Source: Candidatus Zixiibacteriota bacterium
GTDB taxonomy: Bacteria; Zixibacteria; MSB-5A5; GN15; JAAZOE01
Assembly (NCBI GenBank): GCA_043819555.1
Contig: JBDREQ010000005.1
Location: 1-21,581 of the forward strand
DNA length: 21,581 nucleotides
Direction: 5' to 3'
Shown here: piece by piece, positions 358-21,528 of the stretch
How positions within the stretch are numbered: the first letter of the stretch is position 1
Layout: the number at the start of each line of letters is the position of its first letter
The notes under the pieces: model-generated
Seen by the model: only the letters and a program-made list of their open reading frames with translations
Told to the model about the DNA's origin: nothing
The model's database searches: none
Position numbers and translations under genes: made by a program

Positions 358-1113
358 TTACTGCTGTCCCTGAGTATTCTTATTATCAATGACAAATCTC
401 ACGACATACGAAATCCAAACCTCGGTCGGTTCGAGATTTTGAATCGCAGGGCGATATCGACATTTATAGGCGGCCTTCACAGCGGCTTCTTCAAAACCCA
501 TATTAGGCCGAGTACAGTGCTTTGCCTGAGCTTTTTTAACGTTTCCGTTAACGTCAATGAAGGCCTGTATAATTACTTTTGCCGTAAATCCTCCCTCCAA
601 TGCCAAACGAGGATAGACCGGCTCTTCCTCATAAATCTGCACCGGCTGTACTTCAACCGGCTTAAACTTATCGGGCATTATCGCATAAGCGCTGTCGGGA
701 ATATCAATGATAAGTTCATTTCCCTGGCCTTCTTCGTAACGAAATGTCGGAACGTTGAATTCGTACTTTTCCAGGCGAGTTGCAATCACAATGTCTTCAT
801 CAATAACTTCTTCATCATCGACAGCGGCAGGTACACCAACTTTGGGAGCGACGACTTTCGGCTTATCGATATTAATTTGCGGAGGTTTGGTGTCCAGCGA
901 TGGAGGAGGACCCAATTCCATAAAAGTTTTAATTTGTATGATATCTTTCGGTTCAACAACATCATAAGTCACAGTCTTGTACAACCATATCCCAAAGCCA
1001 ATCAAAATGGTCAGAAATAAAGTTGAGAGATTACCCAGCATCATATTACGCTGATATGTCGACTTTAACTCAAACGCCCCGTATGGTATTCTAGTAATAT
1101 GCGGCATAATCAT
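358..1113 (-). CDS. tonB: Energy transducer TonB (paralog 2)
   Basis: N-terminal YGAFELKSTYQRN plus one TM helix, a Pro/acidic linker, and a TonB C-domain (PVYPRLA...AFIDVNGNV...FEEAAVKAAYKCRYRPAIQN). GGAGGTG RBS upstream; start could be either Met of MIM. Confidence 0.9.
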   Translation of the reverse strand: MIMPHITRIPYGAFELKSTYQRNMMLGNLSTLFLTILIGFGIWLYKTVTYDVVEPKDIIQIKTFMELGPPPSLDTKPPQINIDKPKVVAPKVGVPAAVDDEEVIDEDIVIATRLEKYEFNVPTFRYEEGQGNELIIDIPDSAYAIMPDKFKPVEVQPVQIYEEEPVYPRLALEGGFTAKVIIQAFIDVNGNVKKAQAKHCTRPNMGFEEAAVKAAYKCRYRPAIQNLEPTEVWISYVVRFVIDNKNTQGQQ

Positions 1114-1403
1114 TCACCTCCCCTCATATTTTGCTCAATCACATTTCCAATTGCATGATGCAATTGGAGATTAATTTCAGCTTTTTCATTTTGATATTGA
1201 ATATCCGGCGTGGACATTGCTGTTCGATACGGATTCATGTAATGTATAAATATCGCCGCCCCCCCGGCAAAAATAAATATACAGCCAAAGACGACGCCAA
1301 GTAATGATCCCATAATCCATTGACGAGGCTGGAATGAATAAGCGCTTTTGTTGCGGTATTGTGAGGTTGGGGGATTATGCAAATTAACTGAAAAAAGACT
1401 CAT
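1110..1403 (-). CDS. Small single-pass membrane hypothetical protein (97 aa)
   Basis: ATG at 1403 preceded by GGAGGGAG. One hydrophobic segment (WIMGSLLGVVFGCIFIFAGGAAIFI). Stop overlaps the tonB start (ATGA). Confidence 0.6.
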   Translation of the reverse strand: MSLFSVNLHNPPTSQYRNKSAYSFQPRQWIMGSLLGVVFGCIFIFAGGAAIFIHYMNPYRTAMSTPDIQYQNEKAEINLQLHHAIGNVIEQNMRGGE

Positions 1404-1483
1404 ATCTCCCTCCTGACACAAAGGATTTAACAGTACTTGCACTGCGATATTGTCCGAGCCTTTTTTCTCGATATTTGTCAGTA

Positions 1484-1747
1484 TTAGCCGATTGTCATTG
1501 TGTATCTCATATCGGTATTCGCCAGAGATACAGTCGAATTCCTCTTTATATCATTTTTGATACTCGATGCTTCGGGCCTATGGATTACAATTGTAACTGA
1601 AACAATCATGGCAAACACCATCAGCGCCAGAATAGCTGCCAAAACAAATTCCCGAAACCAGTCCTGCCTCCAATGGAACGCTATTATTTCTCGGGTGGTT
1701 GAGAGCCTTTCGATTGAAGAGTGAACTTCCGCATTCTCACAATTCAT
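1484..1747 (-). CDS. Small single-pass membrane hypothetical protein (~87 aa)
   Basis: One strong TM segment (FVLAAILALMVFAMIVSVTIVI). Purine-rich stretch before the ATG at 1747; the ORF-track start at 1786 is an alternative. Confidence 0.55.
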   Translation of the reverse strand: MNCENAEVHSSIERLSTTREIIAFHWRQDWFREFVLAAILALMVFAMIVSVTIVIHRPEASSIKNDIKRNSTVSLANTDMRYTMTIG

Positions 1748-1911
1748 TTTCCATCCCTTCTTTTTGGCGGCAATCATACCGCGCATTACGCCTGTTTTCT
1801 CGGATTAATGAACCTGAATCATCCCGGTCAGACCGGGAGACGGAAAATTATGCGCTGCTTAAATTGTGAGGTAAAGACGATGTCAAGCGTCTTTGGCGGG
1901 GATTTTTTATG

Positions 1912-1940
1912 GAGAGAGTGTTTTATTATTTCACTCTCTC
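1912..1940 (-). terminator. Stem-loop just downstream of tonB paralog 1 (terminator or 3' stabiliser)
   Basis: GAGAGAGTG-11 nt-CACTCTCTC, a perfect 9-bp stem 17 nt past the stop. No clear U-tract. Confidence 0.45.
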
Positions 1941-1957
1941 AAAATCAAAAGTATCAA

Positions 1958-2677
1958 TTACATCGTAAAGTCGACCACGTATGAGATCCAGCAGCCAATT
2001 GGAGCTCCGTTTTGAATGGCCGGCCGATATAAACATTTATACGCGGCTTTTACAGCTGCTTCTTCAAAGCCCATATTGGGTCTCGTACATTGTTTTGCTT
2101 GAGCCTTTTTTACATTACCATTTTTGTCGACGAATGCCTCAATCACTACTTTTGCGGTAAAACCGCCTTCCTGGGCCAAACGAGGGTATTCCGGAATTTC
2201 CTCATAGGTCTGCACCGGATATACTTCAACCGCGACAAACTCATCGGGCGATGGCATGTAGTCTTCTTCGGGAATATCAATGACAAGATCAGAGCCTTCG
2301 CCTTCTTCGCCAAAGACAGGCGCGTTTATCTCCTGCAATTCATCACGCGATGCAATTACGATATCTTCATCGATGACTTCATCGTCATCGACCGCGGTCG
2401 GAATTCCGACCGTGGGAGCGGCGATTTTCGGTTTATCGATATTAATTTGCGGAGGTTTGGCCGCCAGCGACGGAGGCGCGCCCAATTCCGCGATCGTTTT
2501 AATGCGAATGACGTTGGTCGCTTCCATATCCTCATAGGTAATGATCCGATAAATCCAAACTCCAAAACCAATTACAATAGTCAAGGCAATGGTTGAAAGA
2601 GTGCCCAGCATCATATTGCGCTGATAGCATGATTTTAATTCAAACGCGCCGTAGGGAGTAGCCATTGAATTTGCCAT
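1958..2677 (-). CDS. tonB: Energy transducer TonB (paralog 1), 239 aa
   Basis: Start reassigned to MANSMATPYGAFELK (ATG 2677, GGAGGTG RBS, just after the exbD stop). TM anchor, Pro/acidic linker, TonB C-domain (PEYPRLA...AFVDKNGNV...YRPAIQNGAP). Confidence 0.93.
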   Translation of the reverse strand: MANSMATPYGAFELKSCYQRNMMLGTLSTIALTIVIGFGVWIYRIITYEDMEATNVIRIKTIAELGAPPSLAAKPPQINIDKPKIAAPTVGIPTAVDDDEVIDEDIVIASRDELQEINAPVFGEEGEGSDLVIDIPEEDYMPSPDEFVAVEVYPVQTYEEIPEYPRLAQEGGFTAKVVIEAFVDKNGNVKKAQAKQCTRPNMGFEEAAVKAAYKCLYRPAIQNGAPIGCWISYVVDFTM

Positions 2678-2678
2678 T

Positions 2679-3296
2679 TTATTCACCTCCCCCAAGAACT
2701 TTTTCAACCATTCGCGTATCGCGGTTTTCCCATGGAGCCTGGGCATAGCGATACGAAAATCGCCTGGACCTGAACTCTTCTGCCCGTTCATGATCAGGAT
2801 CATTAAAGTCCCTAATGGATACGTCGAGTTCTTTGGCCGTCGCAGCATTAAATGATCGTTCGATCAAATCGATTTCATCCAGGATATCGACAAAAGCACT
2901 GTAACGGGCATCTTCCTGGATGATAATCAGCGTATTGAGCTTAGCGTTTTCTTTGTTCTTATCGACCAGTAACGTTCTCAGGGAATCGCTTCTCATAGGG
3001 GTTGGTAAATCCCGTCCGATAGCCCAGTAGAAATTATTCTTGCCGTCAATCCGAATAGTCAGAAGATTACTATCTTTTATTTTAATTTCCTCTTTCGTGT
3101 CTTCTATGGGAGGCAGGTTGATTTCCATTGCCTGCGGCATGGAGAATACAGTCGTAACCATATAAAAAATCAAGAGGAGAAATGCGATATCAACCATCGG
3201 CGTCATATCGATACGAATAGCAAGACGTCGTTTGGGACGCCTGAGACCTCCGCCTTTTGCTTTTTGCGGTCGATCGCCTACAGGTGCTCCACCCAT
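2679..3296 (-). CDS. exbD: Biopolymer transporter ExbD/TolR family
   Basis: IDMTPMVDIAFLLLIFYMVTT TM motif with the essential Asp; periplasmic domain ending ...VDILDEI, plus a C-terminal extension. Confidence 0.93.
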   Translation of the reverse strand: MGGAPVGDRPQKAKGGGLRRPKRRLAIRIDMTPMVDIAFLLLIFYMVTTVFSMPQAMEINLPPIEDTKEEIKIKDSNLLTIRIDGKNNFYWAIGRDLPTPMRSDSLRTLLVDKNKENAKLNTLIIIQEDARYSAFVDILDEIDLIERSFNAATAKELDVSIRDFNDPDHERAEEFRSRRFSYRYAQAPWENRDTRMVEKVLGGGE

Positions 3297-3343
3297 TTAA
3301 ATCACCACCTTTAAAAAACTGTTTTCATAAATAATCCCGGACA

Positions 3344-3814
3344 TCATATTTCAGACTCCAATTTGGTTATAATCTGGAATCGTGGCAGATGCTGTTCCTG
3401 AAGCGTTTTCATAATCTCCTCCATCGTCCCGAAACTCGATTCCTTATCCGCCTTAATCACCAAAAACGCCCTGGGATTTCTAACACGGGCTTCGTTAATA
3501 TAGCTTCCAACATCACTTGAAGTCACCTCGAAATATTGCCTAATCGGCTGCGAAATTTCCCTGTTATCAATTGTCACCATCCGTTTAATGATATAATCGA
3601 CGAAAATCGAATCGTCGGAAGTAACAGTGACATTTATAATGTCTCTGTCCGGTAAAGAAACCATCGAATGCGATGACGGCAAATCCACCTTCTTCTTCTC
3701 CGGAGGTTTAAACTGAGTAGTTGACATATAAAAAATGAGAAGCAGAAAGGCGATGTCAACCATCGGAGTCATATCGATGAGGATGCTAATCCGCCGTTTC
3801 TTCTTTATCTTCAT
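3344..3814 (-). CDS. exbD: Biopolymer transporter ExbD/TolR family
   Basis: IDMTPMVDIAFLLLIFYMSTT, V-x-LP-x-S and VIKADKE motifs; start overlaps the exbB stop. Confidence 0.95.
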   Translation of the reverse strand: MKIKKKRRISILIDMTPMVDIAFLLLIFYMSTTQFKPPEKKKVDLPSSHSMVSLPDRDIINVTVTSDDSIFVDYIIKRMVTIDNREISQPIRQYFEVTSSDVGSYINEARVRNPRAFLVIKADKESSFGTMEEIMKTLQEQHLPRFQIITKLESEI

Positions 3815-4569
3815 TTATTATGCTCCCTGGCTTTCAACATCTGAAGAATCTCATAACTGGCTTCATCAGTGGTATAGTTGAAAGCATCAACTTTATTAAC
3901 AAAAAAATTGTAGAAAAAGATTCCCAAAATACCGGAAGCTAACCCACCGGCTGTATTAACCAACGCTTCGGAAATCCCGCGGGCCAATGCCTGAGCGTCA
4001 ATAACGCCTCCGGCAGTGTGGCCGGTTGCGGCAAAAGCACGAATCATTCCGATTGTAGTTCCCAGAAGTCCGACCATAGTAGCAATTGATGCAATCGTCG
4101 AAAGAGCGATCAAGTTGCGTTCCAGGAGCGGTCCCTCAAGAGCATTGGCTTCTTCGATGGCCGCTTGCGTTGCCGCGATTTTCTTATCAGTATCCATCGA
4201 CCCATCTTCTTTGATGCGCATGTACCGTTCAATCCCGGCGCGAAGAACGTTGGCTGTTGTGCCCCGCTGTTTATCGCAGGCAGCCAAAGCTGATTCATAA
4301 TCATTGCTCTGAAGGTGGCCGATTAAATTTTTGAAATACACCTGAACCGAACTTTTTCCTTTGGCCACTTTTAACGACATGAATCGTTCTACAACAAATG
4401 CCAAAAGCATCAGTAGAATCGCAATCAAAATAACAACCAGAGGTCCCCCCTCATATAAAGTATGCAAAATCGATCCGGTTTCCGCGTTCTTGAAAATTAC
4501 GCCCCATAATACACCGCCCACAGCAAACGAGATTATGGTATTGAGGGTTACAAAAATAGTTTGTTTCAC
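3811..4569 (-). CDS. exbB: MotA/TolQ/ExbB proton channel protein
   Basis: LSTIASIATMVGLLGTTIGMIRAF and LARGISEALVNTAGGL signatures; GTG start after a GGAGG RBS. Confidence 0.95.
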   Translation of the reverse strand: MKQTIFVTLNTIISFAVGGVLWGVIFKNAETGSILHTLYEGGPLVVILIAILLMLLAFVVERFMSLKVAKGKSSVQVYFKNLIGHLQSNDYESALAACDKQRGTTANVLRAGIERYMRIKEDGSMDTDKKIAATQAAIEEANALEGPLLERNLIALSTIASIATMVGLLGTTIGMIRAFAATGHTAGGVIDAQALARGISEALVNTAGGLASGILGIFFYNFFVNKVDAFNYTTDEASYEILQMLKAREHNK

Positions 4570-8016: not shown

Positions 8017-9171
8017 TTACTCCAGCCATTCGGCATTACATACGATTTTTTTCTCGAAGCCTATCTCAATCATTATTTTACCGCGATATCCCTCAAAATC
8101 TCCTTTTGTATTAACAGCAGGATACCAGGTAAACCTTGACATGATTTCTGAAATATTTTCTTTTAGTTTATCAGAGACACTAGAAGGTGAAAAATTTATC
8201 GTATTCCCATCCTGATTAATATAGATTATGCCTGATGCTCCGCCAAATGCGTTTTTAGTCAGACTGCTGGCGTTTTTATATCCCAGGGGAAAATTTCTCG
8301 GGATTGGAAAGAGGCTAATATCATCGGGATTTAGGCTGAGTGTCATAAAATATTTTTCTGCATGTGTCATATCTCCAGAACTGTCAATGGATTCAGTTGG
8401 TGAATAAGGATAGTCTATATTATCAAAAAACCTGAAGACAAAAAGAAAATCAGACGCAATCGCTGTACCATTGATTGATGCCGGTGTGAATTCGGAATTT
8501 ATCAAAGCTGTCAATACCGAATGCGTACCCTTATCCATCCCTGAAAACGGGAAGGATACATCAATTAATTCTCCCATTTCATCTATTATAATTCGAGCTG
8601 CGACTATTTCATATTGGCCGCTTTTGCGGGACGGATCGACACGAAATTTCATCGGCGGTATTTTTTTTGCTTCAGGCAAGACGATAGTATTTAATCTCAA
8701 AAATTCATAGGCCAAATCTCTATCGTATTTGTACCCGGATTCGGTTTCATTATCCTGGAGTACAAAAGGCAGCTGGAGATCGATTGAGCCATTCACGAAA
8801 AACTCATAGCCAAATATTACTTTGATGGGAACACTTATTGGCTCTCCCAATTTTCTACCTATGGTAAACTGGAATTGGATTTTTTTGAGTTTCTTTTTCA
8901 CCGATTCAATCCAGCGCAAAGAATCCGGGGAAAAATTTATCTCCTGGACCTTACCCTTTCCATCAATACTGAGAATGGCTTTGATTTCAGACTGCGAAAA
9001 TCGTTTTTTAGATATTTTGTGATCCAGTTTTATTTGCGGAATCTCTTTGGGGTAAGGCAAAGAAATTCCTAAATAGTTATGAAACGAACCTATATTGGAA
9101 GCCGATCCAATATTCGTTCCCAAACCCAAACAGATAATAATTAAAGCCGGGAAAATCCAATTTCTAACCAT
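8017..9171 (-). CDS. Exported protein with three TonB C-terminal-like domains
   Basis: N-terminal signal/anchor, then three I-[DN]-x-x-G beta-hairpin motifs (SIDGKGKV, IIDEMGEL, YINQDGNT), two followed by FTPASINGTAI / WYPAVNTKG-type TonB-C motifs. Confidence 0.7.
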   Translation of the reverse strand: MVRNWIFPALIIICLGLGTNIGSASNIGSFHNYLGISLPYPKEIPQIKLDHKISKKRFSQSEIKAILSIDGKGKVQEINFSPDSLRWIESVKKKLKKIQFQFTIGRKLGEPISVPIKVIFGYEFFVNGSIDLQLPFVLQDNETESGYKYDRDLAYEFLRLNTIVLPEAKKIPPMKFRVDPSRKSGQYEIVAARIIIDEMGELIDVSFPFSGMDKGTHSVLTALINSEFTPASINGTAIASDFLFVFRFFDNIDYPYSPTESIDSSGDMTHAEKYFMTLSLNPDDISLFPIPRNFPLGYKNASSLTKNAFGGASGIIYINQDGNTINFSPSSVSDKLKENISEIMSRFTWYPAVNTKGDFEGYRGKIMIEIGFEKKIVCNAEWLE

Positions 9172-9763: not shown

Positions 9764-10990
9764 TTACCTTTTATGGCATTGAATACATAAATCCATAGCC
9801 GGATCAAGCGGAAGATAGTTTTCAAAATTAGCGCCATGGAGTTTGTGGCAACTAAGACAGGTCAGCTGCTTCTGAGTTCGGGGATCTGTTATATTGCCTC
9901 CCGCTGGATGTGATACCTTATGTGCTGAAACATGACAAGTCGGGCACAAATTCATGCCATCGGCGTTCAAGTATCGGTCATTATCAGAACCATGCGGAGA
10001 ATGGCAATTGGAACAATCCATACTATTATGCGTGATATATTCGGATTTCTTTTTGACCGAAAACTCCGGACCGGAAAAATGACAGCCCATGCATAATTCG
10101 GATTGCCCGCTTGCCAGTAGGGATTTTCCTGAAGATGAATGCGGATTGTGACAATAAAGACATGATTTTTCGGTATTGAGGTTATGGGTATATTTTATAT
10201 CGACTTTCGTTCCAATAGAGGAATGACATTTTCTACATATAGTTTTGACATCGGAAACTAACTCAAAACTGGATTTCCCTTCAGAAGTTTTATGACAAAT
10301 TTCACATTTATTGTTTTTGAAAGGAGCATGTTGATTTTCCATTAATAGGTTCCCGGTGGATGTTGCATGGGGATCATGACAAGTCATGCAATTAGCCTTT
10401 GACATATTATAACCCTTATGCCGGGTATTGAAACTTTCATCCCGATCATGGCAATCAAAACAGATAAAGGGAATGTCACCGACTAACAATTTTGGATTAT
10501 TTGAATTGTGAGGCTGGTGACAGACCTGGCAATCCCCATCTTCCACTGGTGAATGCACTACCGCCCTATTTTTCCACTCGGCCACATTAGTATGGCAATT
10601 CGCGCAAAGCTCAGTTGTGGGAGAAATAAGTTGACTGGTAAAACCGGAGGCATGAGGATTGTGGCAAAGAGTGCAATCTCCTTCTCGAACCGGGCCATGA
10701 ATCGATCCACCTTCCGCCATATGCCCAATTTCTTCGTGGCAATTCATACAAATGATTTGATTATCGTCATTAAGAAGCGAAGCGTGCTGGGAGGCATGGG
10801 GGTTGTGGCACGATGAACACTTACCGTTCGCGAAAGCAGTATGCTGATGCTTTTTGCCCAATAAATCTTCGATTTCTGAGTGGCAAACCAGGCACACCGA
10901 AGGCTCATCGACAACAACATTTGCCGCTGATATCGGACTTATCAGGACAAGCAAGAGTATTATTCCGCTAAGGTATGTTCGGGTTTTCAT
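9764..10990 (-). CDS. 16-heme periplasmic c-type cytochrome (doubled-CxxCH repeat type)
   Basis: Sec signal peptide; 16 CxxCH counted, in repeating H-x-P...CxxCH-x-PH...LCxxCH units. ATGA overlap with the upstream gene. Confidence 0.97.
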   Translation of the reverse strand: MKTRTYLSGIILLLVLISPISAANVVVDEPSVCLVCHSEIEDLLGKKHQHTAFANGKCSSCHNPHASQHASLLNDDNQIICMNCHEEIGHMAEGGSIHGPVREGDCTLCHNPHASGFTSQLISPTTELCANCHTNVAEWKNRAVVHSPVEDGDCQVCHQPHNSNNPKLLVGDIPFICFDCHDRDESFNTRHKGYNMSKANCMTCHDPHATSTGNLLMENQHAPFKNNKCEICHKTSEGKSSFELVSDVKTICRKCHSSIGTKVDIKYTHNLNTEKSCLYCHNPHSSSGKSLLASGQSELCMGCHFSGPEFSVKKKSEYITHNSMDCSNCHSPHGSDNDRYLNADGMNLCPTCHVSAHKVSHPAGGNITDPRTQKQLTCLSCHKLHGANFENYLPLDPAMDLCIQCHKR

Positions 10991-13026: not shown

Positions 13027-14715
13027 CTAAAACATTGAATCAAAGTACTCACTAAGCGCTTCTTTGTTATACTCTATCTGAGAATTTTCCTTGATAATAT
13101 CCAACGTTTCATCGAGCATTTCTTTAAACATGCGCTGAAACATTACTTTTCGAATTTCCATTTCCACATCGGCCAGCGCCTTCACTCGTCCAGCTCTTCG
13201 AGAGATGACATTGAAAATAATAAATCCTTCAGCGGTTTTGTACAATCCGCTCGATTGCCCCGGCATGAGATTTATAATTTCGGCTCTTACAGAAGCCGGA
13301 AATCTATCAATGGTAATCCATTCATGCCCTTCCGTTTCCCGTTGCTGTGTCTTTTCGTATTGAGATTTCAAGAACTTAAAATCAGCGCCGTCTTGCAGGC
13401 GCCGAGATACTTCCTCAGCAGTGGACGAATCGGCGATTTCAATTCTATTGATCTGAAATTGTACCGATTCCCGAAAGTCGTCCTGATGAGAGGAATAATA
13501 TTCTTCAAATTCGCCATGATTAAATTTTATCTTTGGAAAAACCATTTCTCCCAGATAATGATCAACCAGGGCACTATCAAGACTTTGTTCATATAACGCA
13601 GTGACTATATGATTATCGAGATAGCCACCCTCTTTAGCCGCGGCGGCAAGCAGCAACTCTTCACGCATATCTTCAATGCCCGCATTCATGTTGTACTCAA
13701 AGGATTGGTCTCCGGCTGACATGGCCGAGCGCGAAACGGACCTTCGCAAATCCTGTTCAGTCATTTCAACCCGACCGTCAATCCGCATTGCGACCGAATC
13801 AGATCCATTCATAAATTCCTGAGTAAAAAGAGATGACGAGTCTTCAATAATGTCTCGTATCATTGCGGAATCCATTTCAATGCTGTAGTCAAGAGCGAGG
13901 TCTTTCAGGAAAGAGCTCCAGGATTTTTCTCTTTTTTCGCTGATTTGGATTCCTTTAATTTTCCTTTTTAAAGTTTCCAGTTCCGATTCATCGGAAGATA
14001 CCGACTTCTCCAATCGTAAAAATGCAAAAACTCTGCGATATGAAAAAACGGGAGACAGTTCTCCGGGGGATAGTTTTTGGGCCTGACTTCTGAGCGCTTC
14101 TTCGACATCGGCGTAGTATTTGAGTTTGTGCAGCCCCCCCTGGTATTTATACATATCAAGAGATAACCCTGACGCAATACTGTCCATATCAGCCCCATCC
14201 TGCACCATTTGATGAATTTTCTCGGCATCATCTTTTAATTGTATAGAAATGGTCCGGATCTGCATCTTAAAATAATTTTTCCGGAAGAATTCTAATATTT
14301 CTTCTTCTCCAATTGAATCATTTGGCTGATAATTGTCACTGACATATTTACTAATTGCATTTTTGAGTCGGCTTTTTTCCAACTCCAAATGAAGGTTTTC
14401 ATTTTCATCCAGTCCCAGCGCGTATGCTTCTTGTACTATCAAACGGTCGTTGACCAATTTGGTGAAAAGCTGCCGATAATTGAAACCTTCTCTTTCTTTA
14501 CTATCTTTTCCGGAATGCGATTGCACAATTTCCCGATCAAGCGAACTGGAATAAATGGTATCTCCGTTCACGACCGCCAAAACCTGGTCGTTTAGTGCGG
14601 ATATGTCTTTAGTTTCACTCTGGCCATGAGCATATGGGGAAATCATCAAAACAGCAATTGCTATAAAAATCACATTCCAGCTGTGGTTCCAGTTTTTAAT
14701 AGTTTCAAATCGCAT
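13027..14715 (-). CDS. SurA/PrsA-like chaperone with two parvulin (rotamase)-like domains; OscH-like
   Basis: Signal peptide, VLAVVNGDTI...LVNDRLIVQEAYALGLD N-domain, and two parvulin-like segments (QDGADM...GGL...LSPGELSPV; QDGADF...LMPGQSSGLYKTAEGFIIF). Confidence 0.88.
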   Translation of the reverse strand: MRFETIKNWNHSWNVIFIAIAVLMISPYAHGQSETKDISALNDQVLAVVNGDTIYSSSLDREIVQSHSGKDSKEREGFNYRQLFTKLVNDRLIVQEAYALGLDENENLHLELEKSRLKNAISKYVSDNYQPNDSIGEEEILEFFRKNYFKMQIRTISIQLKDDAEKIHQMVQDGADMDSIASGLSLDMYKYQGGLHKLKYYADVEEALRSQAQKLSPGELSPVFSYRRVFAFLRLEKSVSSDESELETLKRKIKGIQISEKREKSWSSFLKDLALDYSIEMDSAMIRDIIEDSSSLFTQEFMNGSDSVAMRIDGRVEMTEQDLRRSVSRSAMSAGDQSFEYNMNAGIEDMREELLLAAAAKEGGYLDNHIVTALYEQSLDSALVDHYLGEMVFPKIKFNHGEFEEYYSSHQDDFRESVQFQINRIEIADSSTAEEVSRRLQDGADFKFLKSQYEKTQQRETEGHEWITIDRFPASVRAEIINLMPGQSSGLYKTAEGFIIFNVISRRAGRVKALADVEMEIRKVMFQRMFKEMLDETLDIIKENSQIEYNKEALSEYFDSMF

Positions 14716-14718
14716 GGA

Positions 14719-15819
14719 CTAATTTACCTGTTTTGTATCCCACTTTTTTAAACCAGAATCCAGTTTATCAAGCAGTTTACTTAATGCCGCGCTGATAAGC
14801 TTGCCATCAGAATAGTTTTTCTTTGCACCCAATAATGTCTCTGAATTACTTCCGGACATGGTCAGGTCATAAGCCGCGATTATATATCCTGTTTTTGAAC
14901 ACAGATAGCGCCCGCTGAGTTCAATCACCGGTCCCGGACCTCCAGTAGTGCCGCTTCCCGGCTGGAAAAAATTCACACTTCCGGTGAGCAGTAAATCAGC
15001 TCCAAGCTCATTATTAATCTTCTCAGCCAATTTTATATCAATTCCTCCGCGCGGCATTTTTTGGTTTTGACGGAAAAAAGATTCAACCAGGCTTGGCTCA
15101 ATCACTCGATATTCTTTGCGAACTAATTCCGATATTACTCTTACCGATGCGATATCGCCGGCATATTGGGATGATGATAAATTATCAAAAGGTACAACGG
15201 CAATTTTTAATGAATGAGGCGGATCGGATATTGCTCCGCCATCAGAAACCTGAGGGATGGTAAAATCCTCAAATAATCGGTCGATCAATTTGTCCATAAG
15301 CGTATCGACCGAAACAATTCGGCCTAGATCAAACAAGCCGCCAAATCCACTACCCTCGGCCCCGATTGATTTTGCCCAGATAATTATTTGATCATCAGTT
15401 CGCATTAAGCGCAGAGAGATACCCAATTCAGGGTTTTCATCATCTCGATACTTATCGATTGACCCAAGAAGCAGGAGATGAACGTCCAGTTCTTTTTCAA
15501 TGGCACGTATATCAAGAGATGATAATGCGCCGGGAATACGAATGCGGTTATTTCTCAGAGTGTTTCTCAGATCAAGAGAGTCGACAACGTTTATATCTTT
15601 TTGGCTGCAATACCCGTAAAATTTTTCGGTTATTACCCGTTTGGCCTCATTTGTTTCCGCATAATTGGCCAAAGGCAGGATCGCTATTTTGGGCCTTGAT
15701 GCCTCGACTTCATCATTTATTGGGTCAGGCGATTTTTCACCGAAAGCGCAAGGTGTCATCACAAGATATATTAATAAAAAAAACATCGCGAGACCGATAT
15801 ATCTGATTTTTATATCCAT
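14719..15819 (-). CDS. Exported protein with two tandem CsgG/TolB-N-like domains; OscG-like
   Basis: Two repeats starting KIAILPLANY and KIAVVPFDNLS, each with ELxxxLLLxGS and a closing (R/G)-x-x...(W/Y) strand pattern; similar to the neighbouring lipoprotein. Confidence 0.75.
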   Translation of the reverse strand: MDIKIRYIGLAMFFLLIYLVMTPCAFGEKSPDPINDEVEASRPKIAILPLANYAETNEAKRVITEKFYGYCSQKDINVVDSLDLRNTLRNNRIRIPGALSSLDIRAIEKELDVHLLLLGSIDKYRDDENPELGISLRLMRTDDQIIIWAKSIGAEGSGFGGLFDLGRIVSVDTLMDKLIDRLFEDFTIPQVSDGGAISDPPHSLKIAVVPFDNLSSSQYAGDIASVRVISELVRKEYRVIEPSLVESFFRQNQKMPRGGIDIKLAEKINNELGADLLLTGSVNFFQPGSGTTGGPGPVIELSGRYLCSKTGYIIAAYDLTMSGSNSETLLGAKKNYSDGKLISAALSKLLDKLDSGLKKWDTKQVN

Positions 15820-15823
15820 AAAT

Positions 15824-16399
15824 CTACTTAATCAGTGTTCGCAGAATACTTGAGACGCAATCTCTAATCGCCTGGCTTTGCGATTTTCCTCCGGTTCCAA
15901 ATAAAGAGGACCAGAATCCCCTACCGCCGGAATTTTGTGTGGCCGACCAGACTATCTCACCGGATTCAGTCTCGACCATTCGCACTACCAGAGTCACTGA
16001 ATTAGTTACTGCATTCCCGCTCCTGGTTGAAGCTAATTCATTTACTGCTCCCAGAAAAAGTCCCTGAACTTTTAGTTCTGTTCCAATAGAAATAATCTGT
16101 TCTTTGGTCAGGTTACTGGTGCGAACGATACCATGTTTTTCAAGAACGCGACTGACCTCCCCCGGTTCAACTACGTCAAAGGCTTTGCTGGAAAGAAGTT
16201 CGGTTAGAAATACATGAGTTACTCGAGCGCCCGCTCCCTGTTCTTTTGACAGATTATCAAAAGGAATTATCGCCACGCGTTCTACAAAATTAAAAGTAAA
16301 TTCGGGGTGCAAAAAAACTGTCGCGCGATTGCCGGCGCACCCCCCCAAAAGCCCCCCCGCCACTATTATTGCTATTAATGTTGTTGCCAAGTACTTCAT
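15824..16399 (-). CDS. CsgG-like (DUF799/GNA1162-like) lipoprotein; OscF-like
   Basis: Lipobox-like LLGG|C; RVAIIPFDNLS...LFLGAV...LVVRMVETESGEIVWSA pattern typical of the CsgG/LpoB fold. Confidence 0.8.
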   Translation of the reverse strand: MKYLATTLIAIIVAGGLLGGCAGNRATVFLHPEFTFNFVERVAIIPFDNLSKEQGAGARVTHVFLTELLSSKAFDVVEPGEVSRVLEKHGIVRTSNLTKEQIISIGTELKVQGLFLGAVNELASTRSGNAVTNSVTLVVRMVETESGEIVWSATQNSGGRGFWSSLFGTGGKSQSQAIRDCVSSILRTLIK

Positions 16400-16418: not shown

Positions 16419-18602
16419 TTAAAACCCGGACCGTAATCCAAACTGGAGCGACGTCACACGGGATCTGTCAATCTGTGGAAACTTGCTGTTGGTGTAATTT
16501 ACGTTCAATGCAGTTCGTTTGCCAAGTAAATAATTTAAATGGATATTCCGCTGCAAGGTTTGAGCATTTATTTCATCGTCATTTAGTGTGATCAAACCTC
16601 CTATGGATATACGGGGAGTTACATTCCAACTTAGATTGAATTCATAAAACGTATTTTGGTGGGTGTTATCGGTGTTAAGTATTAATGAACCGCGCATTAA
16701 TATTGTTTGCGTTGCGCGTAAATCCATGCTGGTTGTCAATTGACGCCGTATTCTACTGTCATTGTCGGATTGGCCATGGCTTGTTTGGTACAGCAGCCCA
16801 GTAACTACATCAAGGGCTTGACTTAAATTACTATTGACCATTAAACGGTAGGTCCAACTGTCAATATGAATCTTAGAATCATAGCTATTGTTTCTGCTAT
16901 ATCCGGCCTCGCCGGATAAATTGAGGCCCGGCAATAATTGTCCATTCGATTTAAATGAAAGATTATTTGTTTCTTGAACAGTCGCCTGATCAACCGACGT
17001 AAGCCTCGAAAAAGCACCGAGTGACAGTTTAAGGGTGGAAAAAGGATTATACGCCAAGCTATATGAAAAACTGCTATTGCCGTTGCGTACACCGCCGGTT
17101 TTGAATTTTGATACCCCCGCCTGATATCTTATCCCATGCTTTACATTTGAGGATATTTTGTGGCTGGTTGATGCCGCATAATATATCTGGCTTCGGCTGT
17201 TCACGAAATCGCCGCGGGGCTGGTAATTCCAGGAAAATTCGATGGAAGATTCGACGTTTTTTGAAAACATGTAGGTACTTGAGATTTCGGTCCGATGAGA
17301 CGTTTGTTTCCTGGTATCCTTGCTCATATCGGCCGATTCCTCCAGGACCTGGATTTCAGTAACATAAACGTTAACCGCGTCGTTAATTCCGTAATTAACG
17401 GCTTTAATATAGCGCGAATGCGCGGTCGGCGAAAATACCTCATATCGGCCGTAACTACTGTTGAAGCTGCTTGCAACATCGGAAACCTTGGTCCATATCA
17501 GGTTATCTGAAGAGGTGTAAACATCCCAGTAAATCAATGGTCCCGAAGGCGCATCCGTATAAATATATATCGCATCTATGCCATAATCAAAACCGAGATC
17601 AACACCGATATTTTGATTTGCATTCCCTTCGCCAATATTAATTGGAGGCTCCGTTGGTTGAGTAATATCACCGTCGGACAGAGCCTCTATATCTGTCAAT
17701 TCTCCCTGATCGGGAGTTTGATCATAAGCATATAATGCTGAAGCAAAATGAATTTCTTTATAAACAGGGGCCGCGAAATCTTGTTGTGTTGACCGCATTC
17801 GATGCGAGAGATTATATCCCGAATTCAGTCGAAGTTTTTTGTTAAAGAACTGGGCAGATTGATTCCAGCGAAACAGATGATTGTTTTCATCGATTATCAA
17901 ACCGGTCGCATTATTACGGTTATGACTAAATGCCAGATTATAATACAAATTAAAGGTATTCAGCTGATAGCTGGCGCCGGTCTGAATTCTGGTTTCACTA
18001 TCATTTCGGTTACTTAGATCAATATCATTGTAAGAATGGTTGCGATCAAACTGAATTGTCAAAATAGGATAGTTCGGTGAATTGGTAGAAAAACGCAAAT
18101 TTGTATTGTCCCGATGCAGATTGGTGGCTTCATTATTACTAATTGATTTTTGACGGCTGATTAATCCTCGAAAAATAAAGTCGGAATGATTCCAGGCCAT
18201 CTGGGCTGACGGTCTCAACCTTTGCCTCCATGAGTTTTCGCCGAGACTGTGATCTATCCCCAGATCATTGTATTGCAGCGACAAATGAGTTTTGACATAC
18301 GGCAATAATTGTCGAGACCAACTAATTGAATAATCCTGATTGAATGTCTTATCGATCTCCCCGGCGGTTGTGGATTTCACACTGTTTAAATTAACAGTAC
18401 CTCTGATAGATTCAGGAGGAAAAGCCAAGGTATTGGAATACAAAAAGATAGTCCAAATAAAGGAGACGGCAATTGTATATAAAGGAGTAATACCGGATGA
18501 ATTCGGGAAATCCAGTGAGGAAGTGCTGGCTGATTTCCGGCTTCGTGTAAAATGGCTTCCAAGCATATGTAACAAGTTGACAAACATTTTATCTATCATC
18601 AA
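16419..18602 (-). CDS. Large outer-membrane beta-barrel protein with inserted discoidin-like domain; OscE-like (start uncertain)
   Basis: Alternating amphipathic strands rich in Y/W/F/N/S, C-terminal LQFGLRSGF (terminal Phe, BAM-type signal), and signal-like ...FLYSNTLA|FPP. The true start is probably downstream of 18602. Confidence 0.82.
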   Translation of the reverse strand: MMIDKMFVNLLHMLGSHFTRSRKSASTSSLDFPNSSGITPLYTIAVSFIWTIFLYSNTLAFPPESIRGTVNLNSVKSTTAGEIDKTFNQDYSISWSRQLLPYVKTHLSLQYNDLGIDHSLGENSWRQRLRPSAQMAWNHSDFIFRGLISRQKSISNNEATNLHRDNTNLRFSTNSPNYPILTIQFDRNHSYNDIDLSNRNDSETRIQTGASYQLNTFNLYYNLAFSHNRNNATGLIIDENNHLFRWNQSAQFFNKKLRLNSGYNLSHRMRSTQQDFAAPVYKEIHFASALYAYDQTPDQGELTDIEALSDGDITQPTEPPINIGEGNANQNIGVDLGFDYGIDAIYIYTDAPSGPLIYWDVYTSSDNLIWTKVSDVASSFNSSYGRYEVFSPTAHSRYIKAVNYGINDAVNVYVTEIQVLEESADMSKDTRKQTSHRTEISSTYMFSKNVESSIEFSWNYQPRGDFVNSRSQIYYAASTSHKISSNVKHGIRYQAGVSKFKTGGVRNGNSSFSYSLAYNPFSTLKLSLGAFSRLTSVDQATVQETNNLSFKSNGQLLPGLNLSGEAGYSRNNSYDSKIHIDSWTYRLMVNSNLSQALDVVTGLLYQTSHGQSDNDSRIRRQLTTSMDLRATQTILMRGSLILNTDNTHQNTFYEFNLSWNVTPRISIGGLITLNDDEINAQTLQRNIHLNYLLGKRTALNVNYTNSKFPQIDRSRVTSLQFGLRSGF

Positions 18603-18604
18603 TG

Positions 18605-18635
18605 GGAACGCCCGGACTATTTGCCCGGGCGTTCC
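18605..18635 (-). terminator. GC-rich stem-loop between the omcS-like gene and the barrel gene
   Basis: GGAACGCCCGG-9 nt-CCGGGCGTTCC, a perfect 11-bp stem. No U-tract on the - strand. Confidence 0.65.
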
Positions 18636-18693
18636 ATTCTTTATTATCCTGGTTCTGTTTTACTTCAGAATCTAAGATATTAAGCCCGCAAGA

Positions 18694-19752
18694 TTATGGG
18701 GCAGCTATTTCAATGTGGTCACCAGCATCCTTTACATGGCATTTGTTGCAAAGTGAACGCTGATTGGGGCTTGCGTATGGATCCTCAATAGCCAAAGATC
18801 CGGACTCAACACCATCTTCTTCCAAAAGCGTTACATTGAAATCCCAGCGTCCGGCATTCGGAGCTGATGAGGCGTGCGCGCGATGGCAAGTCAGACACAT
18901 AACCTTACTGCCTGCATCTGGACCATCTGTTGACGCAACCGCGGCATTCGCATCTTCAAATGGCACAGCTGCCAGATAGGAAGTCAGCGGATTGCCGCCG
19001 ATTATATCTTCGGTTCCGTTATAGAGACCATAGGCTGTAGCCACATCACCGCCAAGAGTCGAACCTGATGGGTGAATTAACTTGGTGCTGTTATCATGAA
19101 AATCACCATGGCAATTTCCACACCACTCGCTCATACCGCTCTTATAGGCAGTATGATTATCATCCAACTCATCCGTATTCCTGGCATCGATACCTTCGGC
19201 ATCCGGAGTGGCGCTGGTGAAGGTATAGAGGCCATCCTGTATCGTGCCAACGGTATTCAGGAAACGAAAACCGTCATTGCCATGAGGATCATGGCAACTG
19301 GAACAACCAAGAGCGGTGGACGGAAACGTTCCACCCGGGGCTGCCAAAAGAGTAGCGTCTGCACTAACTCCCTTAGATGGGGCGTCGATATTATGACCGG
19401 CGGCATCGCCGACAATTGGGTGACTCGCGCCTGAATGACCGTCATTAAGGTTGTCTTCGGTTAGGAACACAAAATCGCCGCCTCCGTTCAGCCCGTTCGG
19501 GGCCAAAGGATCGGCGGCAAAAACGCCGCGAGAACCGGTGCTATGACAGGACAGACAGACGTCACTGGGTGTCTCGTCCTTCAATAGCCAGGCATTTCCA
19601 TCGGGGCTATCGGTGTCAACCCATGCTCCGTTTTCGCTATTGTGCATCGTATGACAACCATTACAATGTGCCACACCGGCATCATGAAATGCCAATGCGT
19701 TGCCGCCAAGCGCAAAACAAAGAGCGGCAATCAGTAGTAGGTACCTATGCAT
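18694..19752 (-). CDS. omcS: OmcS-family hexaheme cytochrome c (candidate nanowire subunit)
   Basis: Signal peptide ...NALA|FHDAGVAHCNGCHTMHNS; 6 CxxCH. OmcS-like motifs GGDF, GHNI, APGGTFP...CSSCHDPHG, GMSEWCxNCH, HP, PFE, CLxCHRAHAS and QRxLCNKCHxKD occur in the OmcS order. AAGGAG RBS. Confidence 0.92.
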   Translation of the reverse strand: MHRYLLLIAALCFALGGNALAFHDAGVAHCNGCHTMHNSENGAWVDTDSPDGNAWLLKDETPSDVCLSCHSTGSRGVFAADPLAPNGLNGGGDFVFLTEDNLNDGHSGASHPIVGDAAGHNIDAPSKGVSADATLLAAPGGTFPSTALGCSSCHDPHGNDGFRFLNTVGTIQDGLYTFTSATPDAEGIDARNTDELDDNHTAYKSGMSEWCGNCHGDFHDNSTKLIHPSGSTLGGDVATAYGLYNGTEDIIGGNPLTSYLAAVPFEDANAAVASTDGPDAGSKVMCLTCHRAHASSAPNAGRWDFNVTLLEEDGVESGSLAIEDPYASPNQRSLCNKCHVKDAGDHIEIAAP

Positions 19753-19789
19753 ACCTGTTTCTCCTTAATACAAAACAAAGGTGGTTGTA

Positions 19790-19854: not shown

Positions 19855-20961
19855 TCATTGAAGTTTCCCCCCATCCAATGTATACGTGGAATTGTTTTTT
19901 GAGGTCAATTCCAGCTGAGAATTCGATGAGTCCTTATTATTAAATTCTGCATTGCGATTTGTGACGAATAACGGCAAATGACACGCTTGTACCCTGTTTA
20001 AGAATACCTGGCCAATAAAAATAGTACCCGCATCGTCGACGGCCAACCAGGCCGGGTGGTAAAACCAGCCCAAACTTGATCCCTTGCCGCCAAATTCCCC
20101 AAGGAATTTTCCATCAAAGTTATAACAGACAACGGCAAAACGGTGCTTATCAAGGACGAGAATAATCTGATTATCGGTCATCGTGGCCGAAACAGGGAAG
20201 TTCAATTCCCCCATGTTATTCCCCCGATAACCGATCGCTTTGATAAATTTCCCGGATAAATCATATAGATAGACAGTGCCCAGAGATGCGACAGGCAGGC
20301 AGATCACGTTGCCAACTACCGAGATCGAGCCAAAAACGAGTTCATTTCCTCTTTCACCTGACAGGTCTTCCACGACGGGAAATCGGTTGCAAACCTCACC
20401 CTCAACGGTAATACAGATTATTTGCTTTTCAAAGGCATCCAGAGCCCAGATATTGCCATTATCATCCGTCGCAATTGATTCCAGCCTACGTGAATCTATT
20501 CCGGATTTTTGAGAATATTCCATTTTATCCAGGTATGTGCCATCATAGTCAAATATATGAATTTCTCTTCCCCGCTGAGTAGAGCCGAGTACATATATCC
20601 GGCCTGATGGGTCCACCGCAAAATCCTGCGGCAAACCACAATATTCGCTAACGGAGAATTGGTATTTGTACACCCCCTGACCCGAAAAAATAACAATCCG
20701 GTTATTTCCACAATCAGCTATATAGATTTCGTCGGTGTGTGAATCGGCCACTATTCGTCCAGGGCGCAGTAAGTTGTTCTGGCTGCCGGGAAGCTGAAAT
20801 TGATAAGAAAACTCGGCCGGAACTGAAAGCTGGGTTATTTCCTGCGAAAATCCATGGATTTGAAGAAATAATAAAAACGCCCCAGCCAATATTGCAGATT
20901 TAAGCAACAAATTGGGCGATATAAAAGGGAAACTTCTTATCCTACTAATCAATTCAAACAA
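19855..20961 (-). CDS. Exported NHL-repeat six-bladed beta-propeller; OscD-like
   Basis: NHL repeats (LLRPGRIVAD...IYIADCGNNRIVIF; PQDFAVDPSGRIYV; GELNFPV; GWFYHPAWLAVDDAGTIFIG). TTG start after AAGAGG; signal-like N-terminus. Confidence 0.9.
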   Translation of the reverse strand: MFELISRIRSFPFISPNLLLKSAILAGAFLLFLQIHGFSQEITQLSVPAEFSYQFQLPGSQNNLLRPGRIVADSHTDEIYIADCGNNRIVIFSGQGVYKYQFSVSEYCGLPQDFAVDPSGRIYVLGSTQRGREIHIFDYDGTYLDKMEYSQKSGIDSRRLESIATDDNGNIWALDAFEKQIICITVEGEVCNRFPVVEDLSGERGNELVFGSISVVGNVICLPVASLGTVYLYDLSGKFIKAIGYRGNNMGELNFPVSATMTDNQIILVLDKHRFAVVCYNFDGKFLGEFGGKGSSLGWFYHPAWLAVDDAGTIFIGQVFLNRVQACHLPLFVTNRNAEFNNKDSSNSQLELTSKNNSTYTLDGGKLQ

Positions 20962-21023: not shown

Positions 21024-21441
21024 CATTATCTACGACAACTTAATCGCTACTATTAAGGCCTTTCTAATCCCGTATACATAACTTGCCCCAATTTAATACG
21101 TTTTCAGAAATACGCAAGTATATTTATCCTGTTTTTTTGCATTATTCATGGTGTAATTTGTCCTCATTAATTAGGCATTATATTTGCTATTTTATCCAAA
21201 ATACAATTGAAAAATGAGTAACAATAGGAACAAGATATTTTGATCTTTTATTTCAAAGATGAGCCCATTTTTGGGCCCCTGAAAACGGCTTTTTAATCCA
21301 GTTTTTAATATCGACTTTGCGTATAAGAGCAAAACAATGATGTAATTATATCCGATTCGCCAAGCTAACGGGATTTAAAAGAATCTTATGCGACAGACGT
21401 CCCGTCTGCCCCCGCCAAAATCAGTAAAATTACCAATAAAG

Positions 21442-21528
21442 CGGAGAGGCTGGGATTCGAACCCAGGAACGAGTTGCCCCGTTAACTGCTTAGCAGGCAG
21501 CTGCCTTCAGCCGCTCGGCCACCTCTCC
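21442..21528 (-). tRNA. tRNA-Ser(GCT)
   Basis: GGAGAGG/CCTCTCC acceptor stem, anticodon arm GCTGC-CT-GCT-AA-GCAGT, long variable arm, CTGGG-TTCGAAT-CCCAG T arm, G discriminator. CCA not encoded. Confidence 0.97.

Follow-up and report, generated by a model that had tools for sequence, protein, structure and literature searches.

A compact OmcS-family hexahaem cytochrome and its adjacent osc-type gene cluster in a Candidatus Zixiibacteriota contig

The window analysed here is an entire contig of 21.6 kb (JBDREQ010000005.1, 21,581 nucleotides) from a Candidatus Zixiibacteriota bacterium, and the gene under study encodes an exported c-type cytochrome with six haem motifs, related to the filament-forming OmcS of Geobacter sulfurreducens. 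Every gene in the window is on the minus strand. Along the direction of transcription the order is tRNA-Ser, an NHL-repeat propeller, the cytochrome, a 727-amino acid (aa) protein, an LpoB/CsgG-like lipoprotein, a FlgO-like protein, a peptidyl-prolyl isomerase (PPIase) and two larger cytochromes with 26 and 16 haem motifs (Table 1). The mature cytochrome starts FHDAGVAHCNGCHTMH, has 331 aa and carries CXXCH motifs at positions 9, 45, 129, 190, 265 and 314. No second OmcS homologue was found in the genome to which the window belongs, and the gene is thus single copy. Cytochrome c assembly genes are present in this genome, and 18 frames with at least three CXXCH motifs indicate a modest multihaem repertoire. 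A look-up of public sequencing runs for the gene listed none, and no RNA data set.

Table 1. Features of the cytochrome gene and of its neighbours in the window
Feature	Position	Strand	Basis
tRNA-Ser (GCU; anticodon GCT), upstream of the NHL gene	21441-21528	-	
NHL-repeat six-bladed beta-propeller with signal peptide, upstream neighbour	19855..20961	-	Pfam NHL 2.6e-14
Shine-Dalgarno-like AAGGAG, 8 nt before ATG	19761..19766	-	read from sequence
OmcS-family hexahaem cytochrome gene	18694..19752	-	open reading frame, 352-aa precursor, stop codon 18694-18696
Start codon ATG	19752-19750	-	read from sequence
Sec-type signal peptide, 21 aa, cleaved after NALA, mature N-terminus Phe-His	19690..19752	-	read from sequence
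His2 codon, family-conserved non-motif His, presumed distal ligand	19684..19686	-	99% conserved
Haem motif 1, CNGCH, mature 9-13	19651..19665	-	invariant in 96/96 sequences
His16 codon CAC	19642..19644	-	conserved in 96% of 114 aligned family members
Haem motif 2, CLSCH, mature 45-49	19543..19557	-	sequence and family alignment
His99 codon (GHNI), invariant non-motif His	19393..19395	-	family alignments
Haem motif 3, CSSCH, and invariant His136 (CSSCHDPH)	19282..19305	-	sequence and family alignments
Haem motif 4, CGNCH, mature 190-194	19108..19122	-	sequence and family alignment
His206 codon (IHP), invariant non-motif His	19072..19074	-	family alignments
Haem motif 5, CLTCH, and invariant His272 (CLTCHRAH)	18874..18897	-	sequence and family alignments
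Haem motif 6, CNKCH, mature 314-318	18736..18750	-	sequence and family alignment
Clade-specific C-terminal tail, ~10 aa (AGDHIEIAAP), past the OmcS end (...KD)	18697..18726	-	phmmer alignment; low pLDDT
RNA hairpin, perfect 16-bp stem, between cytochrome stop and barrel gene	18601..18638	-	folding
Large outer-membrane beta-barrel, 727 aa, with inserted galactose-binding-like domain at ~280-423	16419..18602	-	Pfam F5_F8_type_C_2
LpoB/CsgG-like lipoprotein, lipobox LLGGC	15824..16399	-	family matches; 51-64% identity in 14/14 same-phylum loci
FlgO-like (LpoB/CsgG-fold) protein	14719..15819	-	family matches
Periplasmic PpiC-type peptidyl-prolyl isomerase (SurA/PpiD-like)	13027..14715	-	Pfam/NCBIfam
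26-haem cytochrome, 26 CXXCH in 666 aa	10987..12987	-	motif count
16-haem cytochrome, 408 aa, 16 CXXCH; 4-nt overlap with the 26-haem gene	9764..10990	-	motif count

To place the cytochrome, it was searched with phmmer against all PDB chain sequences. A single distinct sequence was matched, OmcS of G. sulfurreducens (6ef8/6nef), with an E-value of 1.6e-40. The match comprised three collinear stretches covering query residues 22-342, in which query F22 pairs with the first residue of OmcS and the CHTMH histidine is number 16 in each protein. An AlphaFold2 model computed from a 96-sequence family alignment had a mean predicted local distance difference test (pLDDT) score of 89.0 and a predicted template modelling (pTM) score of 0.86. 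The sole significant Foldseek match of this model in the PDB was 6ef8_A (E 1.5e-19, template modelling (TM) score TMq 0.75), the next match having an E-value of 0.98. Structural alignment to 6ef8_A with VIA-align gave a Z of 31.0 and a root-mean-square deviation of 2.4 Å over 314 of the 331 mature residues at 38% identity, spanning residues 22-342 of the model and 1-407 of OmcS. The cytochrome, which the initial annotation had called an OmcS homologue from the letters of the DNA, is a true OmcS-family hexahaem protein and has the OmcS fold. Since the model superposes across OmcS, the protein corresponds to an OmcS core with loops removed.

The extent of this reduction also matched the earlier description, which had set 331 mature residues against about 407 in OmcS and had located shorter segments after haem motifs 3 and 5. 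In the PDB, OmcS is 407 aa long (also given in PMC6584659). In the phmmer alignment, OmcS residues 154-199, after motif 3, stand opposite query residues 165-172 alone, a difference of ~38 residues, and OmcS 371-392, after motif 5, lack a query counterpart, a difference of 22. A further ~10 and ~15 residues are lost inside the aligned stretches, and ~10 are added beyond the OmcS end. The spacings between successive motifs are 36/84/61/75/49, compared to medians of 40/89/104/89/67 in the 61 long family representatives described below. After motif 6 there are 13 residues, compared to medians of 10 in 118 close relatives and 3 in the long forms. In all, 55 residues are used per haem, compared to 68 in OmcS.

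Apart from length, the protein shares with OmcS (GSU2504; PDB 6EF8/6NEF) the six CXXCH motifs in identical order, a Sec signal peptide and the mature N-terminus FH..GVA.C.GCHTMHNS including His16, the N-terminal 18 residues being nearly identical. It differs from OmcS in its low isoelectric point (pI), its content of only 13 Lys and Arg and its C-terminal extension, and it is known from the gene alone, whereas OmcS is known from filaments. A second comparison is offered by the tetrahaem cytochrome OmcE (PDB 7TFS), which likewise has an insulated haem chain with an inter-subunit His (PMC9473688, PMC12954529) and whose clusters likewise contain genes for a large outer-membrane barrel and a beta-propeller lipoprotein (PMC13712944). 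OmcE, however, has four haems and an unrelated sequence, and its structural match to the window protein was weak and partial (7tfs Z 4.1 in VIA-align).

The axial histidines were assigned from an alignment of 114 rows (the query, 30 close relatives and 83 representatives at the 50% identity level), each of full length and with six motifs. The Cys and His of the motifs were invariant in all 114 rows, as were all 18 Cys/His motif columns in the 96-sequence alignment. Exactly six non-motif His were conserved, namely H2 (99%), H16 (96%) and H99, H136, H206 and H272 (100% each). Of the remaining His, H198 was kept in 64% of the rows, and H8, H85, H90, H179 and H325 were not conserved. The 96-sequence alignment agreed on the conserved His. 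Together, the six motif His and H2/H16/H99/H136/H206/H272 make up a complete predicted set for bis-His ligation of six haems, and the twelve axial His that the initial annotation had proposed to map against OmcS all have conserved candidates.

Of the 12 His ligands in OmcS, eleven are own-chain residues and one, at haem 5, belongs to the neighbour (PMC6584659; PMC9473688; PMC12954529). The initial annotation had drawn attention to a His at mature position 16, encoded at 19642-19644; a CAC codon is indeed located there, and the residue aligned to residue 16 of OmcS. In OmcS, Wang et al. 2019 are reported to have identified this residue as the neighbour-donated ligand of haem 5. The phmmer alignment and PMC6584659 are consistent with residue 16 as an inter-subunit ligand; a term search for His16 in PMC9743091, PMC9094664 and PMC12954529 found nothing. 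By homology, His16 of the window protein is presumed to fill the sixth coordination site of haem 5 in the adjoining subunit.

To see how far these traits extend, relatives were collected in several searches. A word-indexed search scored 8000 candidates, 4072 of which had E <= 1e-5. The top 120 matches had 331-398 residues and 62-100% identity, the 100% row being the window's own protein, and the closest named proteins among them were labelled, for example, Zixibacteria (P0007, P0016) and Acidobacteriota (P0010). An exhaustive search of 50%-identity representatives gave 827 matches at E <= 1e-3, 363 at <= 1e-10 and 103 at <= 1e-30. Among 270 proteins examined, 203 had six CXXCH motifs, 202 of them with at least 320 residues, and precursor lengths were continuous from 331 to 484. 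The 118 close relatives had a median mature length of 329 (range 321-341), motif spacings as in the query and, without exception, FH at the mature N-terminus. Their median pI was 4.73 (below 5 in 101/118) and their median net charge -24, compared to a median length of 406 residues, a pI of 6.07 and a net charge of -8 for the 61 long representatives. Compactness and acidity are thus norms of the clade and His16 is a norm of the family, none being peculiar to the window gene. Within this large group, which occurs in many bacteria not yet cultured, the gene is typical; as a candidate it is good but ordinary.

The acidity noted in the initial annotation was also confirmed, with a shift of emphasis as to its cause. 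The mature protein contains 33 Asp and 13 Glu against 7 Lys and 6 Arg, with a pI of 4.47 and a net charge of about -33, the fifth most negative of 202. Lys and Arg make up 4.0% of the precursor and Asp plus Glu 13.1%; several neighbouring proteins reach 13-17% Asp plus Glu. The low pI is therefore owed mainly to the scarcity of Lys and Arg, Asp plus Glu being only moderately high. A halophile-type acidic proteome was considered as the cause of the low pI and rejected, the median pI over 1362 long open reading frames (ORFs) being 5.83; the pI values of the adjacent barrel and lipoprotein, 7.9 and 8.7, also weigh against it. Horizontal transfer, considered on the basis of GC content, was rejected as well. 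The gene has a GC of 0.517 compared to 0.436 for the genome, yet its GC at third codon positions (0.456) is ordinary; the high value arises because the protein is rich in Gly, Ala, Asp, His and Cys.

A stronger claim, which goes back to the initial annotation, is that a filament of this protein might be clearly thinner than an OmcS wire, with haems more open to solvent and with a different, strongly anionic surface. This is a sub-claim of the filament interpretation given below, and its probability is not to be summed with those of the competing readings. In its favour are the lower number of residues per haem, the concentration of the losses after haem motifs 3 and 5, and the net charge of about -33 compared to the median of -8 in long forms. 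In OmcS itself the shielding of the haems is almost complete (PMC6584659), so that removal of loops could expose them. On the other hand, the superposition of 314 residues at 2.4 Å implies that the core wrapping is retained, and the trait is clade-wide and not a peculiarity of the window gene. On balance, a wire that differs from OmcS in this way is plausible but less likely than not.

A pattern scan with one genome per species confirmed at least 211 relatives, of which the best 80 were kept, as 79 loci. Among these best 80, relatives at 47-71% identity were labelled Fibrobacteria, Gemmatimonadota, Zixiibacteriota, Krumholzibacteriota, Ignavibacteria and Acidobacteriota/Thermoanaerobaculia, with one Alphaproteobacteria. 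Those at 29-40% were labelled Geobacter, Geomonas, Desulfuromonadales, Nitrospirota, Anaeromyxobacteraceae, Rokuibacteriota and others. Nine loci that lacked the N-terminus or did not have exactly six motifs were dropped (L029, L041, L044, L045, L048, L052, L058, L092 and L096). A quick IQ-TREE analysis of the 70 clean loci and the query (short search, no bootstrap, root unknown) put the query into a 21-row branch, in which 20 rows have at most 345 mature residues, with a support of 100 in the Shimodaira-Hasegawa-like approximate likelihood ratio test (SH-aLRT). The long Geobacter-type proteins formed a separate branch of 35 rows, also with SH-aLRT 100. Records of the compact clade were labelled Zixiibacteriota, Fibrobacterota, Krumholzibacteriota, Ignavibacteriota and Acidobacteriota.

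Within the phylum of the window, 57 of 201 sampled genomes (G000 included) matched at E <= 1e-10, 37 of them at E <= 4.1e-62. The other 20 matches were weak (E 1e-11 to 1e-18, 29-34% identity). The frames in these genomes (G096, G133, G146, G097, G010 and 15 more) were ~320-380 aa in length and probably belong to another family of cytochromes that is comparable in size.

OmcS homologues and their partners have been called widespread (PMC10954620; PMC12954529), and surveys attribute iron-cycling cytochrome genes to Zixibacteria (PMC8478452; PMC7005843). The window gene adds one example to this recognised, widespread family. In a literature search no paper was found that describes the compact clade in its own right; it may be covered by Shen et al. 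2025 and the supplements to that paper.

The genes adjacent to the cytochrome were then compared between genomes. For the phylum of the window, 14 strong matches were chosen that had sufficient flanking sequence, and all eight protein-coding genes were present in identical order in 14/14 of these loci. From the 727-aa gene onward the intergenic gaps are -4 to 39 nt, and the gap between the cytochrome and barrel genes is 91 nt. The AlphaFold2 model of the 727-aa protein (pLDDT 85.8) was all-beta, with ~11 strands, an inserted beta-sandwich (~280-423) and ~17 more strands. Its best Foldseek matches were MtrB of the Mtr complex (6r2q_B), TonB-dependent receptors, pilus ushers and LptD, with TM scores of at most 0.40. 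As these are all large outer-membrane barrels matched at low TM scores, they indicate the class of the protein alone. Residues 1-38 were unstructured in the model (pLDDT <50), and relatives align to the protein just from about residue 37-85. The listed TTG start is probably too far upstream, with the true start further in.

Across the 79 cross-phylum loci the companion genes recurred in almost the same order in Geobacter, Geomonas, Nitrospirota and others. At least three of the four core companions (the barrel, the two lipoprotein types and the PPIase) were found in 37/70 clean loci, many of the others being short-flanked. In two Geobacter sp. loci (L067, L105) the order was hexahaem, NHL, barrel, LpoB-like, FlgO-like, PPIase and large cytochrome, and two Geomonas loci (L073, L083) were similar. 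The NHL gene accounted for the sole change of position, standing before the hexahaem gene in the window and after it in L067 and L105. Based on this near-identical gene set and order beside OmcS homologues of Geobacter and Geomonas, the window block was identified as the published osc-type (omcS-companion) cluster.

In Geobacter, a GSU2501-type hexahaem gene always precedes an eight-gene block, GSU2500-GSU2493, which has been linked to OmcS maturation and secretion (PMC12977616; PMC13194489). The window resembles this arrangement in having a single hexahaem gene before a barrel, two lipoproteins, a PPIase, a 26-haem cytochrome and a second multihaem cytochrome, and the count of 26 haems matches the description of GSU2495 as a ~70 kDa, 26-haem protein (PMC12977616). 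It differs in that its genome is without extra paralogues of the omcS/omcT type, in that no conserved eighth gene was found after the 16-haem cytochrome in a comparison with the 14 same-phylum loci, and in that its companion proteins are only 20-38% identical to those of the Geobacter loci L067 and L105. GSU2501, GSU2495 and GSU2494 have been named oscC, oscI and oscJ, and PMC13194489, the source of these names, attributes to Shen et al. 2025 roles for OscH in folding, OscE/F/G in secretion and OscD in morphology. By order and homology, the window genes would correspond to D (propeller), E (barrel), F and G (lipoproteins), H (PPIase), I (26 haems) and J. A role of the companions in folding, secretion and shaping of the window cytochrome would follow by analogy, the genetic evidence coming only from Geobacter. 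Two views of the Geobacter locus are given in PMC12977616: either GSU2501 is possibly ancestral and possibly builds a wire of its own that is yet to be characterised, or secretion was perhaps the first function of the block.

The conservation of this neighbourhood bears on whether the cytochrome might be a periplasmic electron carrier alone, unrelated to the adjacent outer-membrane genes. A signal peptide by itself would take the protein merely to the periplasm, as such a role requires. Yet the adjacent barrel, lipoprotein and propeller genes are strictly conserved across phyla, the protein is homologous to an extracellular filament protein, and the cluster already has two dedicated large periplasmic cytochromes. 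A purely periplasmic carrier is accordingly regarded as very improbable.

Between the cytochrome and barrel genes lies a strong predicted RNA hairpin. The 111-nt stretch that includes it had a folding energy of -38.7 kcal/mol and a z of -4.6, and 0/200 shuffles were as stable. For comparison, the 130 nt after the stop codon were folded in 48 loci (window included), with z calculated against mononucleotide shuffles. An uninterrupted stem of at least 10 bp was present in 41/48 loci, and z was below -3 in 29/48. Among rows with at least 57% protein identity, the stem was at least 11 bp in 29/29 (window included) and z was below -3 in 23/29. Two rows, L022 and L035, had identical values and may be the same DNA. 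Because the earliest start codon available to the barrel gene falls within the hairpin, translation of the barrel probably begins further downstream. It was not called an intrinsic terminator, because no T-run follows the stem; a terminator scan also gave no flag. By analogy to pilus operons, the hairpin may instead act as an attenuator or as a stabiliser of the mRNA 3' end, raising the ratio of subunit to machinery, and its conservation and strength would fit a subunit made in excess. Across the compact clade (L013-L059) the hairpin sequences differ, and their position just after the stop codon of the OmcS-like gene is constant.

The distribution of His16 was assessed across the family. It was present in 118/118 close relatives, 18/22 short representatives and 60/61 long representatives, 196/201 others in total. 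Geobacter hexahaems of the type directly preceding the companion block also carry His16, and they are not known to polymerise. Being nearly family-wide, His16 is non-discriminating and provides no proof of polymerisation. Among the 56 loci flanked on one side by 8 kb or more of sequence, His16 was present in 34 loci with at least three companions and in 17 with fewer, and it was absent from 1 and 4 loci, respectively. Most loci without it were paralogues from Geobacteraceae and Nitrospirota that had no cluster nearby. This association is a weak trend, as the rows are related and the counts small. Six OmcS-family paralogues without His at this position (L064, L084, L085, L086, L087 and L104), 5/6 of them away from companion genes, may be candidates for non-polymerising relatives.

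The same lack of discrimination leaves room for an OmcS-family cytochrome that is exported but builds no long filaments. Such a protein could be a monomeric or short-oligomer terminal reductase or oxidase on the outer surface, or might cap the barrel mouth or serve as an anchor there, with the cluster being a secretion system or a porin-cytochrome-like conduit and not a wire factory. That the best fold match of the barrel was MtrB, from a porin-cytochrome complex, points the same way, at a low TM score of 0.40. Several observations weigh against it. Haem 5 of OmcS has one own-chain ligand. Given an identical twelve-His set and the OmcS fold, haem 5 of a monomer would be five-coordinate, with no role for His16. 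The near-identity of the first 18 residues to OmcS and the over-production of the cytochrome suggested by the conserved hairpin also count against it. A non-filamentous surface cytochrome is thus a possible explanation, although the less likely one.

With family, fold, ligand set and cluster synteny established, the favoured interpretation, held with some but not high confidence, is that the gene product, a six-haem c-type cytochrome of the OmcS family from a compact (~330 aa), Lys/Arg-poor clade, is exported via Sec, is the structural cargo of the adjacent co-directional osc-type cluster and acts as a filament subunit. The OmcS family and fold, the twelve His and the osc-type cluster together make filament formation a reasonable expectation, and polymerisation is plausible by analogy to OmcS. 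In the proposed mechanism, haem would be attached in the periplasm, and the isomerase and the lipoprotein/barrel module would fold the cytochrome and pass it through the outer membrane. Outside, the subunits would stack head to tail as in OmcS, with His16 of one subunit completing the bis-His ligation of haem 5 in the next to give a continuous haem chain. The 26- and 16-haem cytochromes, as large periplasmic proteins, would hand electrons over to this chain or drain it; the direction of electron flow is likewise proposed by analogy.

A number of points weigh against a filament. Filaments have been seen for no member of the compact clade, and the PDB match is Geobacter OmcS alone. The five distal ligands other than His16 were identified by conservation, not from a structure file. 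About 76 residues of OmcS are missing from the window protein, some of which may contribute to the inter-subunit interface, reported as ~1900 Å2 (PMC9473688). The compact clade lies outside the whole long clade and is therefore orthologous neither to OmcS nor to its block-preceding paralogue. Of the four hexahaem paralogues of G. sulfurreducens, OmcS alone is known to form a wire, and the function of the others, including the block-preceding hexahaem, is described as unknown (PMC12977616). A dimer prediction (two copies of residues 22-352, four haems) gave a score of 0.00; it was run without controls and weighs neither way.

If the protein does polymerise, the makers of cytochrome nanowires would include uncultured phyla that are common in sediments and the subsurface and only distantly related to Geobacter, and the subunit would be the smallest known of the OmcS type. 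It would help to find the parts of OmcS that are dispensable for conduction and assembly, and for engineering purposes one subunit with a seven-gene helper set would be simpler to transplant than the paralogue-rich Geobacter locus. More speculatively, the compact clade may represent a minimal OmcS nanowire system, consisting of one anionic subunit of 55 residues per haem and seven companions, spread over uncultured lineages labelled Zixiibacteriota, Fibrobacterota, Krumholzibacteriota, Ignavibacteriota and Acidobacteriota. It would form a thinner, distinct filament from a subunit over-produced via the 3' hairpin, and would perhaps be near to the ancestral arrangement that preceded the expansion of omcS/omcT/GSU2501 in Geobacter. 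This wider proposal is tentative and rather unlikely to hold in all its parts.

Downstream of the 16-haem gene, the ORFs of the window (8017-9171, a TPR protein and ExbB/ExbD/TonB) had no match in the 14 same-phylum loci by tblastn and are therefore probably outside the unit. The first of these (8017-9171, minus strand) encodes a 384-aa secreted protein, begins 592 nt after the 16-haem gene and matched neither Pfam nor NCBIfam nor the relatives. An ExbB-ExbD-ExbD-TonB set with a second TonB-C protein downstream (358-4569, minus strand) was not conserved with the cluster in the 14 loci. A further variation concerned the interval between the cytochrome and barrel genes. In some same-phylum relatives an extra gene, absent from the window, is located there, as in locus L013 (3608-5146, plus strand); it encodes 512 aa with YVTN-type beta-propeller repeats recognised by eye, and gaps of ~1.5 kb were likewise present in L014, L015, L016, L020 and L024.

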